64,000 nt of DNA, from IMG/VR virus record IMGVR_UViG_648028025_000010; one strand, 5' to 3'. This DNA comes from a virus (lineage: Duplodnaviria > Heunggongvirae > Uroviricota > Caudoviricetes). This document shows, piece by piece, positions 55,501 to 58,500 of this stretch. The first letter of the stretch is position 1. Each line of letters opens with the position of its first letter. A program made the position numbers.

Positions 55501-58500
55501 TGTTTTTCATGATGCGCTACCCCCTGAAACCCGGCGGAATTTCGGTATCCGGTTCAGAAATATGATTCACGCAACGCTGCGCGGGACCACGCCACAGTCG
55601 AATAACCAGTTCATCCCATTTCTCACGGAGTTTTTCCGGGCTCTTGATGTTTTTTATCCAGAACGGATCCCGTTGTGCCCGGCTGAACATTTCGCAAATT
55701 TGTCTGTGACTTCTTCCATCCAGCATCCGCATTGTGCGCACGTCATTGGCCCACGCCGTCCAGTTGGGCTCTTTCGGTCGCGTGATCTCACCATCGTCAC
55801 TGGCAGCCTGTTCGTACAGGTTTACAACCCGCCCCCAGATCCACTGCGCACATGTCAAATCCTCCCGGGTTCCCCACTGGCGTTTTTTCACGCTGAACAC
55901 AACTGCATCAGGATGGCGGGTTAAAAACGCCTGTTCAGCCGTCAACTCGTCCGGTTGCGAAGCGTCCGGACAAGAGAGTTTTTTATTCTCTGTTGTATTC
56001 TCTGTTGTATTCTCTGTAGGATCATCGGGCCATTTTGACCTGATGACATTGGGCCGTTTTGAACCAATGGAACGTTTCATTTTGACCTCTTCCATCGTGT
56101 CATTTTGACCTGATGGAGTGGCGCATTTTGACCCGATGGATTCGTTCACTTTGCCATCATCTAAAAGCGCGCTATCGTAGTTAATTGTGTAAAAATTAGT
56201 CATATCACGCTTCGATTTATTGAGCTTTTCGCTACGCAAAAGCCCCAGCGCTTTCAGACTTGCAAACGCACGCTTTAACGTTGACTCTGACCAGAACGGA
56301 AACTGTTCCAGCCATTGTTCCGTTGTGTTGTAAATCCAGCGAACGCCATCACATTCCATGCCGGAACTGGTATCCCTCAACCAGTAATGCAGTTGCTGCA
56401 ACACAATGGCTTCGTTTAAACCAATCTTCATCGCCAGCTGTGTGTTTATAACCAGCGGGCGTTCAGCAAAAAGAAGGCTCATAATTCCATCCGGCTTTTT
56501 GTTGGTACTGGTGACGATAGGCACGCTTGAAAGCGATTGCTTTTTCTATAAGCTCGTCTGTCTCACGTTCCACAACAGCTGGATCTGCAAAAAGCAGCCC
56601 GGACTCCACCACATCGCCATATTCTTTGTTTAACCCGGCAATCATGTACGTAATGCTTTTTCCGTCAGTAATTTCGCGGTACAACCTGAAATCACTAATC
56701 CGGATAGCCTCCATAATTGCCGGAATCAGCGCCGTGAATTTTTCACGCTTATCCCTGGTGTCGATAGCCTTCCAGCGTTCGAATATCTTCACCCGGTTAA
56801 CGCCCAGTGCCCGTTGATCAACCTCGCCATCATTAAACGTGATGCGTTGAACATCGATGTTCGGGCGTTCTTTCAGAGCCCAGAATGCTTCCGTGATTAA
56901 TATCGTCGCCTGTTCCTGTGTCATTCCTGGTCGGCACACCCAGGCATCCAGAGCCTCACAAACCTGTTCAGGGGTGATTTTCATTGTTCAACCGCCCCGC
57001 CCGCTTTGCCTTACGATATTCGTCATAAACTTTGGGGTCGTACTGAAGTTCCCCGCCGGATGCCTCTTGCAGGCGCATCGCGCGACCTTCAGGTACTAGC
57101 TCCCCTTTCCAGCTATAAAGCGAAGCCAAACGAATACCAGCAGCTTGTGCAAGTTTTGTTTTTGAACCGAAATACAAAAGTGCGTCAGTTTTAAGCATTT
57201 AAAGCACCTTGATTGTTAGCCATGACTAACAAAATAGATGTTAACAAAAACATAGTCAATAAGATTTAGCATTAGCTAACTATGGATACAAAAAATTTAA
57301 CCATTGGCGAACGCATTAGATATCGCCGAAAAAACCTCAAATACACCCAAAGGTCTCTTGCTAAAGTCCTGAAAATTTCTCACGTATCGGTTTCACAATG
57401 GGAGCGGGATGATAGCGAACCTACAGGAAAGAATCTTTTTGCCCTCAGCAAAGTACTGCAGTGCTCGCCAACATGGATTCTATTTGGCGATGAAGACAAG
57501 CAGCCATCACCACCTATTGAGGAGCCAGTTGCTCTATCCCCCAAAGAACATGAGCTCCTTGAGCTTTTTAATGCATTGCCTGAATCAGAACAGGATGCTC
57601 AGCTCACCGAGATGCGCGCCCGAGTAAAAAATTTCAACAAACTCTTTGAAGAGTTATTAAAAGCCCGTCAACGAACAAACAAAAGATAACGCAATCAATG
57701 CGTTATCTTTTTGGTTGCCCAAAATGTTAGTCATGGCAAACAAAAATACTTGACCAAATTGTTAGTCATGGCTAATCTTGCTTGCATCAAGACACCGCAC
57801 GGTGTTCTCAGCAAACAGTTCCGCTACCCCGGCGTTAAGGGGAAATGAGGTCAACATGGATACGCTCAATCTTGGCAACAACGAATCTCTGGTATGCGGA
57901 GTATTCTCCAACCTGGACGGCACGTTTACCGCGATGACGTATACCAGAAGCAAAACGTTTAAAACTGAAGCTGGCGCGCGTCGCTGGTTAGCCAGAAACA
58001 CTGACTGATGAGGTTGACGATGGAATTTAAAGATTTACCTCCTTCAATCCAGGAGATTGCAGCACACACACTTCGTCATCGTCTGAACGAACTTGAATTG
58101 GAATCGGTAACGAAAAAAGACACTGATAATATGGCTCGTAATGTGCGCGATGCGTTTACCGGATTGTATTTCTGTGCGTCTATAAATAAACACGACTCAG
58201 AGAGTGTGGCAAATAAAATTGCAGAAACGACAGCGCAAAACATCAATACGAAACCAACGGAAGAAGAAATTGATCAGTTTGCTCATGATGCTGGTTTAAA
58301 AAACAAGAAAGAAAAATCGCCATATGCGGGGAACATGTTTGTTTATGACAATCTCATCAGAATTCGTGGCGAAATTCCGGCGGAATACCTGGCAAGAGTC
58401 CATCAGGCATTGCTTAAAAATTTGGAAACAGAATTATTTGATGGCAACACTAACGGTTTCTTCATGGTATCAGGCCTTGAGAAAGACTGGGATGCAGAAA

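Follow-up and report, generated by a model that had tools for sequence, protein, structure and literature searches.

The 64,000-nt stretch of DNA studied here (hereafter the window), which is recorded in IMG/VR as IMGVR_UViG_648028025_000010, matches chromosomes of Escherichia coli O26 and is collinear with that of strain RM8426 (NZ_CP028116.1, 2159134-2223133). According to the annotation, it holds two lambdoid prophages side by side and in the same orientation: prophage A, which extends from before position 1 to about 16417 and ends there at a broken int gene, and prophage B, which begins at about 16595 and continues beyond 64000. Each of them carries a DicA-type repressor gene, a divergent gene for a Cro-like protein and, downstream, an operon with the small RNA DicF and the dicB gene. 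An earlier note on this DNA had recognized the tandem arrangement, as the annotation does, and had proposed that the two repressors use distinct operators and therefore have separate immunity specificities. These two switches are the subject of the present analysis.

Two repressor regions with a common layout

In prophage B, the region 57199-57790 is the already described DicA/DicC/Oc-dicBp switch. The open reading frame of dicC (56968-57198, minus strand), annotated as such in RefSeq, encodes a Cro-like protein of 76 residues that matches Pfam P22_Cro and the DicC model NF007282 (159.6 bits, cutoff 130). An intergenic gap of 83 bp separates it from the gene of the DicA-type repressor (57282-57689, plus strand; 135 residues; Pfam HTH_3), which passes the DicA subfamily model NF007257 with 235.6 bits (cutoff 101). 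A promoter scan places the dicC promoter, TTGACT-17-TATTTT, at 57231-57259 on the minus strand (9/12 matches); in the counterpart region of E. coli K-12, putative −10 and −35 elements of dicC and a mapped start site were marked by Yun 2012 (PMC3441716). The right operator, TTGTTAGCCATGACTAACAA (57213-57232), is a perfect 7-6-7 inverted repeat, TTGTTAG-N6-CTAACAA, and the equivalent of K-12 Oc; it shares 2 bp with the dicC −10 and spans the predicted start-site region just downstream. After the repressor gene, a terminator hairpin with a subsequent T-run (57681-57711, plus strand; fold −16.6 kcal/mol, z = −5.4), which a terminator scan also finds, precedes the promoter of the dicB operon. This promoter, dicBp (TTGACC-17-TAATCT, 57750-57778, plus strand; −35 at 57750-57755, −10 at 57773-57778), was read from the sequence, as its weak −10 (3/6) keeps it off the list of the consensus promoter scan. 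Left operator 1, ATGTTAGTCATGGCAAACAA (57724-57743), has two mismatches to Oc and ends 6 bp upstream of the −35, and left operator 2, TTGTTAGTCATGGCTAATCT (57759-57778), fills the dicBp spacer, with its distal half-site fused to the −10. The former is conserved, with a variable centre, in 83 related loci and in Citrobacter, and the latter is conserved across loci. In an alignment with the K-12 prophage Qin, the half-sites of prophage B are identical at all three sites, as are the −35 and −10 hexamers of dicBp. The earlier note had thus read this region well, from the canonical dicC/dicA pair and its repeat in the divergent region to the two related sites downstream of dicA at a likely dicB-operon promoter with TTGACC.

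Much of what is known about this switch comes from K-12. DicA-dependent repression through Oc (TTGTTAGTCATAACTAACAA) has been shown there in vivo, a single A-to-C change in a half-site abolishes it, and DicA at Oc also activates its own promoter (Yun et al., PMC3441716). Two further K-12 elements that had been predicted from sequence, Om and Oa, are without DicA binding (PMC3441716). DicA represses dicBp as well as dicC, and an analogy to lambda PL and PR has been drawn (PMC10448788).

Prophage A has the same kinds of element in the same order. Its Cro-like protein (5739-5966, minus strand; 75 residues) is of the DicC family (NF007282, 165.3 bits, cutoff 130), and 77 bp separate its gene from that of a DicA-family repressor (6044-6451, plus strand; 135 residues; NF007257, 239.4 bits), which we call type A, the repressor of prophage B being type B. 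The predicted right operator, TTGAGTTTTCTCAA (5980-5993), is a perfect 5-4-5 inverted repeat of 14 bp that abuts the −10 of the cro-like promoter (TTGACT-18-TAGCAT, 5993-6022, minus strand; promoter scan, 9/12 matches) and spans the predicted start-site region. A terminator-like hairpin after the repressor gene (6471-6501, plus strand; fold −11.3 kcal/mol, z = −3.8), not listed by a simple terminator scan, is followed by the promoter of the ydfA-DicF-dicB operon (TTGACG-17-TAAATT, 6539-6567, plus strand; promoter scan), which aligns with the position of dicBp in K-12 and prophage B. Left operator 1, TTGAGTTTTCTCAT (6516-6529), has one mismatch to the right operator and ends 9 bp upstream of the −35; left operator 2, TTTAGTTTTCTCAT (6552-6565, minus strand), has two mismatches and lies within the promoter spacer and −10. 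These are the copies that the earlier note had located near 6510-6570, in addition to the repeat TTGAG-N4-CTCAA at 5980-5993. For both prophages, each feature named in that note was found where it had been placed, or one base away at most. A direct repeat, CTCAAGGAATCTCAAG (6005-6020), was also considered as a pair of extra type-A half-sites and was dropped, as Buttiauxella does not keep its first copy (CGCAAGGAAACTCAGG there).

The layout is common to both prophages: a cro-side operator lies at the leftward promoter and, after the repressor gene and terminator, two operators lie at the rightward promoter, with their centres 35-36 bp apart, the first ending 6-9 bp upstream of the −35 and the second in the spacer or −10. 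That operators flank the repressor gene is expected, because this is the OR/OL layout of every lambdoid immunity region. In agreement with such a region, symmetric operators overlap the cro-side and early-left promoters, and they do so in four specificities, of which two are from the related loci described below. Likewise, beyond cro come replication genes and the gene of a YdaT-family protein with a match to phrog_163, 'CII-like', and kil-like genes, exonuclease, xis and int follow the left promoter. Three operators per side with cooperative binding were not found, each locus having one strong cro-side site and two left sites.

The strong right operator, over the edge of the cro-like −10 and the start-site region, would be the equivalent of lambda OR, and the two left operators, at the promoter of the ydfA-DicF-dicB-exo-xis-int operon, that of lambda OL. 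Repressor dimers on these operators would occlude RNA polymerase and so keep both cro and the toxic DicF/DicB operon off; the occlusion at the left promoter is inferred. Prophage B would do so with the published K-12 specificity, TGTTAG-N6-CTAACA, and prophage A with the specificity TTGAG-TTTT-CTCAA, set by a different recognition helix.

The significance of the two repeats comes from their clustering and not from their counts in the window. With up to three mismatches, the type-B pattern has four hits against 2.1 expected, which is not significant alone, and the bare TTGAG-N4-CTCAA has two against 2.2 expected. With up to two mismatches, each motif has four hits, of which three are grouped around the repressor gene of the same prophage in a span of about 590 bp; a group of three within 600 bp arose in 0/300 dinucleotide-preserving shuffles for either motif. 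The stray hits, one per motif, lie in a tRNA gene at 48330 (type-B pattern) and in a tail gene at 28405 and are at chance level, and the same search of the window found neither motif in the immunity region of the other prophage. The repeats are thus not scattered over unrelated places, a possibility that the earlier note had named as speaking against its proposal.

The loose counts, being near expectation, would also suit the view that the repeats are not repressor operators at all, but chance palindromes, promoter sequence, or sites for the Cro-like protein alone or for a host factor; K-12 Om and Oa, equally predicted from sequence, were not bound by DicA. We nevertheless give this view almost no credence. 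Three copies per locus at equivalent promoter positions recur in four specificities, the shuffles never reproduced the clustering, the right site of type B is an experimentally supported DicA site, and the motif tracks the recognition helix across genera. Besides, binding of Cro would not exclude binding of the repressor: in lambdoid switches, Cro normally uses the repressor's operators too.

Repressor types and operator specificities

Both repressors are members of the DicA subfamily and both divergent partners of the DicC family, as the model scores given above indicate. For either repressor, no match to Peptidase_S24 was found at E <= 0.01, Pfam giving HTH_3 only, so that the S24 domain and Ser/Lys dyad of the autocleavable LexA/cI-type class are not seen in them; DicA has been described as non-cleavable (PMC10448788). 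Their N-terminal domain is homologous to that of P22 C2 (2R1J; E = 4e-20). An AlphaFold2 model of the type-B repressor (mean predicted local distance difference test 85) has a five-helix helix-turn-helix domain (helix 2, residues 23-30; helix 3, residues 34-41) and, after a disordered linker (74-81), a C-terminal helical hairpin rather than the β-rich S24 fold.

Types A and B are 57% identical overall, with 43% in the helix-turn-helix domain, 33% from helix 2 through the turn to helix 3 and 53% in the C-terminal domain. One segment of 17 residues, VLQCSPTWILFGDEDK, is nearly invariant, 16/17 aligned positions being identical (94%). The recognition helix reads SGSSISLWES in type A and SHVSVSQWER in type B. 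The base-reading residues of P22 C2 are Asn32, Val33, Gln37 and Arg40 (PMC5175364); the equivalent positions are H-V-Q-R in type B and G-S-L-S in type A. The earlier note had ascribed a different N-terminal region to the prophage A repressor and had suggested aligning the recognition helices. The N-terminal region does differ, most of all in the helices just named, but the divergence is not confined to it, as the C-terminal identity of 53% shows. The Cro-like proteins are 69% identical, with the differences in their N-terminal helix-turn-helix part and the rest nearly the same.

We retrieved 168 loci that encode relatives of these repressors and typed 167 of them, 84 as type A and 83 as type B. 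All 84 type-A loci have A sites, one upstream and one or two downstream of the repressor gene, and no B sites; conversely, all 83 type-B loci have B sites only. Within type A, TTGAGTTTTCTCAA is invariant in the 84 loci while its flanks vary, and it is also present in two Buttiauxella loci (L008 and L011); left operator 1 is conserved both among the type-A loci and in Buttiauxella. Within type B, polymorphisms sit in the central 6 bp, and the half-sites TGTTAG and CTAACA are fixed.

The more diverged loci extend this pattern. In Citrobacter (L006), a repressor 75% identical to type B, with the same recognition helix, goes with TTGTTAGTCATGACTAACAA on the upstream side and with two Oc-like sites that surround a −35 of TTGCCA. 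The two Buttiauxella loci encode repressors 74-76% identical to type A, with the helix VSDSSISLWES; (C/T)TGAGTTTTCTCAA lies upstream, another copy precedes the −35 and TTGAGAAAACTAA is found within the spacer, in surroundings that otherwise differ. In PPompW/Stx2a prophages (L172:840-1460, LC567818.1), the helix AHVTISQWER goes with CCTTAG-N6-CTAAGG upstream and with CTTAGGTTTTTCTACA and CTTAGGCTATTCTAAA at the left promoter, and in Citrobacter braakii (L007), the helix SHATISLWES goes with sites of the type TTGTTGAG. Judged by these predicted sites, at least two further specificities share the architecture of one plus two operators.

When the operators are compared in a common 20-bp frame, next to the P22 consensus ATTTAAGATATCTTAAAT, all types have TT at half-site positions 4-5. 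At positions 6-8, GAG goes with Leu37 and Ser40 (A and C. braakii) and A(A/G)N with Gln37 and Arg40 (P22, B and PPompW); an outer TTG goes with an Arg that follows the conserved Gln of helix 2 (B and C. braakii). The resulting correlation between helix-turn-helix residues 22, 32, 33, 37 and 40 and operator positions across five specificities is suggestive but comes from a small sample.

This shared TT, together with the membership of both repressors in one subfamily and their almost invariant common 17-residue segment, is what could be cited for the view that the repressors cross-react, their repeats being variants of one recognition class and the prophages being homoimmune, or partly so. We regard this as very unlikely. 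From helix 2 to helix 3 the two are only 33% identical, with H-V-Q-R (B) against G-S-L-S (A) at the base-reading positions (PMC5175364), the half-sites differ at three positions or more, when one half-site change is sufficient to abolish binding of DicA to Oc (PMC3441716), and neither site type occurs in the region of the other, be it here or in the 167 loci.

In our view, both loci are thus very probably lambdoid immunity regions of the DicA/DicC type with separate specificities, and the two prophages would be heteroimmune. Since recognition helices and sites both differ, each repressor should control only its own prophage, and we expect no cross-binding between types A and B. Heteroimmunity is well, though indirectly, supported by the divergent helices, the non-overlapping sets of sites and the single-base sensitivity of Oc. 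The separate specificities proposed in the earlier note are likewise supported by the helix identity of 33%, the different repeats, the linkage of repressor and site in the 167 loci and the persistence of the motifs in Citrobacter and Buttiauxella.

Several points weigh against this conclusion. Binding of the type-A repressor to its sites is a prediction, and even the K-12 site of DicA at dicBp is listed with low evidence and an unknown location (PMC7567609), which is why the assignment of the left operators rests on sequence. Since most of the 167 loci come from E. coli prophages that hardly differ from one another, the association of repressor and site mainly reflects linkage, and only three to five diverged loci support it independently. 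Furthermore, the co-residence of two prophages is no proof of heteroimmunity, and prophage A is defective, so that its switch may not matter in this strain.

The transition between the two types is sharp at the DNA level. Over the replication genes, ydaT and the 3' part of cro, prophages A and B are 85-97% identical; identity falls to about 50% across 5896-6590 in A and 57128-57805 in B and returns to 88-95% from a few bases past the left-promoter −10; divergent cargo genes follow, and then 92-100% identity across DicF. By this comparison, the stretch of about 700 bp that begins at the cro N-terminus and reaches the left-promoter −10 is an immunity cassette swapped as a mosaic module.

This type-A cassette is widespread. 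It occurs at 80% coverage or more in 796/5426 complete E. coli genomes, compared with 847 for type B. Over 921 nt, it shares 99.7% identity with Escherichia phage mEp460_ev081; with phage HannyBb, the identity is 99.5%. The repressor proteins of both phages are 100% identical to that of prophage A. Phage mEp460_ev081 is a functional temperate phage with homologues of dicA, dicC, dicB, dicF and rem (Ragunathan et al.). A search of the literature at hand, a limited collection, did not find the exact type-A operator string, which is weak evidence of novelty. The prophage A counterpart of DicA is a common, uncharacterised member of the family, and its operator specificity is predicted to be new.

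A published lysogeny of mEp460 in MG1655, where type-B DicA is expressed, was considered as evidence on heteroimmunity and rejected: in the phage collection, the type-A repressor was found only in mEp460_ev081 and HannyBb, and a search under the original name mEp460 gave no DicA-like gene.

Directly upstream of the repressor genes, both types have a further symmetric element. In prophage B, this is the palindrome TTAGCATTAGCTAA (57266-57279), which was read from the sequence just before the ATG, could correspond to the 'Oa' element of earlier papers and is kept in the Citrobacter locus L006. In prophage A, the near-palindrome ATTAAGATATCTAAAT at 6028-6043 directly precedes the ATG and resembles the P22 operator consensus; it is kept in the Buttiauxella and C. 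braakii loci although their recognition helices differ. Each of the two elements adjoins or partly covers a possible −10 (TAAGAT); with this −10, the repressor mRNA of type A would have almost no leader.

The controlled operons, antirepressors and the state of prophage A

The DicF small RNAs of prophage A (7637-7688, plus strand; Rfam RF00039, 76.7 bits) and prophage B (59207-59258, plus strand; 75 bits) are identical at 51/52 positions. The dicB/DicF module that the earlier note took to be shared by both prophages is indeed common to them as regards DicF, the leader and ydfA, but less so as regards dicB (7863-8051 in A, 59433-59621 in B), whose proteins are only 63% identical and diverge in their C-terminal halves. 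The next gene is ydfD in A and a DUF1482 gene in B. RM8426 differs from the window by at least one 1-bp indel, somewhere in 57690-59432, which shifts RefSeq coordinates downstream by one; the RefSeq positions of dicB and the exonuclease gene are accordingly one lower than those of the open reading frames in the window.

The leader shared by the two dicB operons opens with an inverted repeat, GACACCGCACGGTGTT (57791-57806 and 6579-6594). Citrobacter and Buttiauxella leaders have a different inverted repeat, AATCAC...GTGATT, at this place, followed by a conserved GTTCCGCT..ACCC..GGG element. The inverted repeat may be bound by a protein or form a nut- or put-like hairpin in the RNA; the leader folds as a single sequence with z = 0.3, and RNAalifold on six leaders misaligned the hairpin and showed no covariation.

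Release from repression would proceed via antirepressors (Rem and Ant) and not via RecA-stimulated cleavage. The rem gene of prophage A lies at the window edge, which cuts it so that only its 5' part is included (1-182, minus strand; RefSeq annotation). The complete protein has the same sequence as K-12 Rem (100% identity) and shares 96% identity with the Rem of mEp460_ev081; the loci compared were the window copy, L175:1152-1403, L176:1565-1816 and L174:36287-36538. In K-12, Rem derepresses dicBp 165-fold (PMC10448788). An 11-mer, TTGTTAGTCAT, which corresponds to the left half-site and part of the spacer of Oc, lies within the rem coding sequence (96-106, minus strand; about 0.03 expected), and no matching right half-site was found beside it in rem.

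One and the same antirepressor is thus found with two operator specificities: Rem lies beside type-B DicA in K-12 and beside type-A repressors in the O26 Qin homologue and in mEp460_ev081. As Rem is paired with both types, it is suggested to target a conserved part of the repressor, and could then act on both prophages. We therefore consider it possible, if somewhat doubtful, that the prophages are heteroimmune at the DNA level and have one shared induction trigger, on the grounds of the identical Rem, the 96% identical Rem in a type-A phage, the common segment VLQCSPTWILFGDEDK and the related C-terminal domain. Such an action of Rem on both types would parallel that of GfoA/GfhA on the heteroimmune Gifsy-1 and Gifsy-3. 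If this is true, one antirepressor would inactivate both repressors and fire both DicF/DicB operons together.

Prophage B has a candidate antirepressor module of its own (52831-53621, minus strand), composed of an Ant-family ORF6N protein (52831-53382; phrog_2379 anti-repressor, E = 1e-77), a C4 antisense RNA (53437-53521; Rfam, 69.4 bits) and isrK (53547-53621; Rfam, 51.2 bits). It may act on the type-B repressor. With isrK and C4 upstream of Ant, it resembles the immI modules of P1 and P7 or those of Gifsy phages. No LexA box (CTGT-N8-ACAG) was found near rem or the Ant gene, the three hits in the window all lying elsewhere.

The two prophages differ in their state of preservation. Prophage A occupies the locus of K-12 Qin, with rem, hokD, relBE, ydfV, flxA and ydfW as neighbours, and is defective: it has an ISEsa1 fragment in its replication region (2454-3794), xis is split by ISCro1 (11000-13615) and int by IS600 (14931-16087). 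Prophage B is of full length. It has genes for head, tail and lysis, a tRNA array, Q, replication genes, an intact int and, next to the tail fibre genes, the type III effector gene nleC (17208-18194). In the tRNA array (48275-48524, minus strand), a tRNA with the anticodon CAT is assigned to Met by ARAGORN and to Ile by RefSeq.

These defects, along with the lack of morphogenesis genes in prophage A, could mean that its switch is an inert relic here, intact by recent descent, and that only the switch of B is in use. We think this unlikely. Isolated phages carry a repressor with exactly the same protein sequence (100% identity), and the operon that it would control still has an intact DicF, dicB and ydfD. 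In K-12, derepression of these is toxic (PMC10448788), so that selection should disfavour a loss of repression.

Relation to known switches and significance

The closest known system is the DicA/DicC switch of K-12 Qin. Prophage B has the same system, with a repressor about 93% identical and the same order dicC-dicA-ydfA...DicF-dicB; here, however, this K-12-type cassette sits in a full-length prophage that carries nleC, and not in Qin. Conversely, prophage A shares with K-12 Qin the architecture, the NCBIfam models and the chromosomal locus, but differs in the repressor, the N-terminus of Cro and all three operators, having the 14-bp TTGAGTTTTCTCAA instead of the 20-bp TTGTTAG-N6-CTAACAA.

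P22 C2, whose N-terminal domain is homologous to those of DicA-type repressors, resembles each type in one respect: the 5-4-5 geometry of TTAAG-ATAT-CTTAA is mirrored by the type-A repeat TTGAG-TTTT-CTCAA (PMC5175364), and the equivalents of Val33, Gln37 and Arg40 are retained in type B. By contrast, types A and B are smaller (135 versus 216 residues), have no S24 autocleavage domain (PMC10448788), differ in half-site sequence and have one strong right and two left operators instead of three and three.

GfoR, GtgR and GfhR of the Salmonella prophages Gifsy-1, -2 and -3 are also short, non-cleavable lambdoid repressors, and DicA has been named in this group (PMC3121763). There, too, the antirepressors are encoded outside the immunity region, and heteroimmune repressors can share one antirepressor, as we suggest by inference for types A and B. 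Unlike in Gifsy, the search for LexA boxes near rem and the Ant gene came up empty, and mitomycin does not induce K-12 dicBp (PMC10448788).

Finally, lambda cI likewise lies between the right operator and promoter, divergent from cro, and the left operator and promoter of the early-left operon. CII-like and replication genes come after cro in both cases, and kil-like genes, exo, xis and int are in the early-left operon. The differences from lambda concern the fold family and size of the repressor, the smaller number of operators and an induction that would not involve RecA-stimulated cleavage.

The practical value of these results is small: type B was already known, and the lambdoid paradigm gains nothing conceptually. 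What they add is an operator, TTGAGTTTTCTCAA, and a promoter layout that are now assigned, by prediction, to a very common and uncharacterised DicA-family repressor, and the observation that the O26 homologue of Qin carries an immunity cassette unlike that of K-12 Qin. If the correspondence between helix-turn-helix residues and operator positions is true, it would amount to a small recognition code for building orthogonal repressors. For enterohaemorrhagic E. coli, the results bear on which repressor controls which copy of DicF/DicB, and on whether one antirepressor releases several of them.

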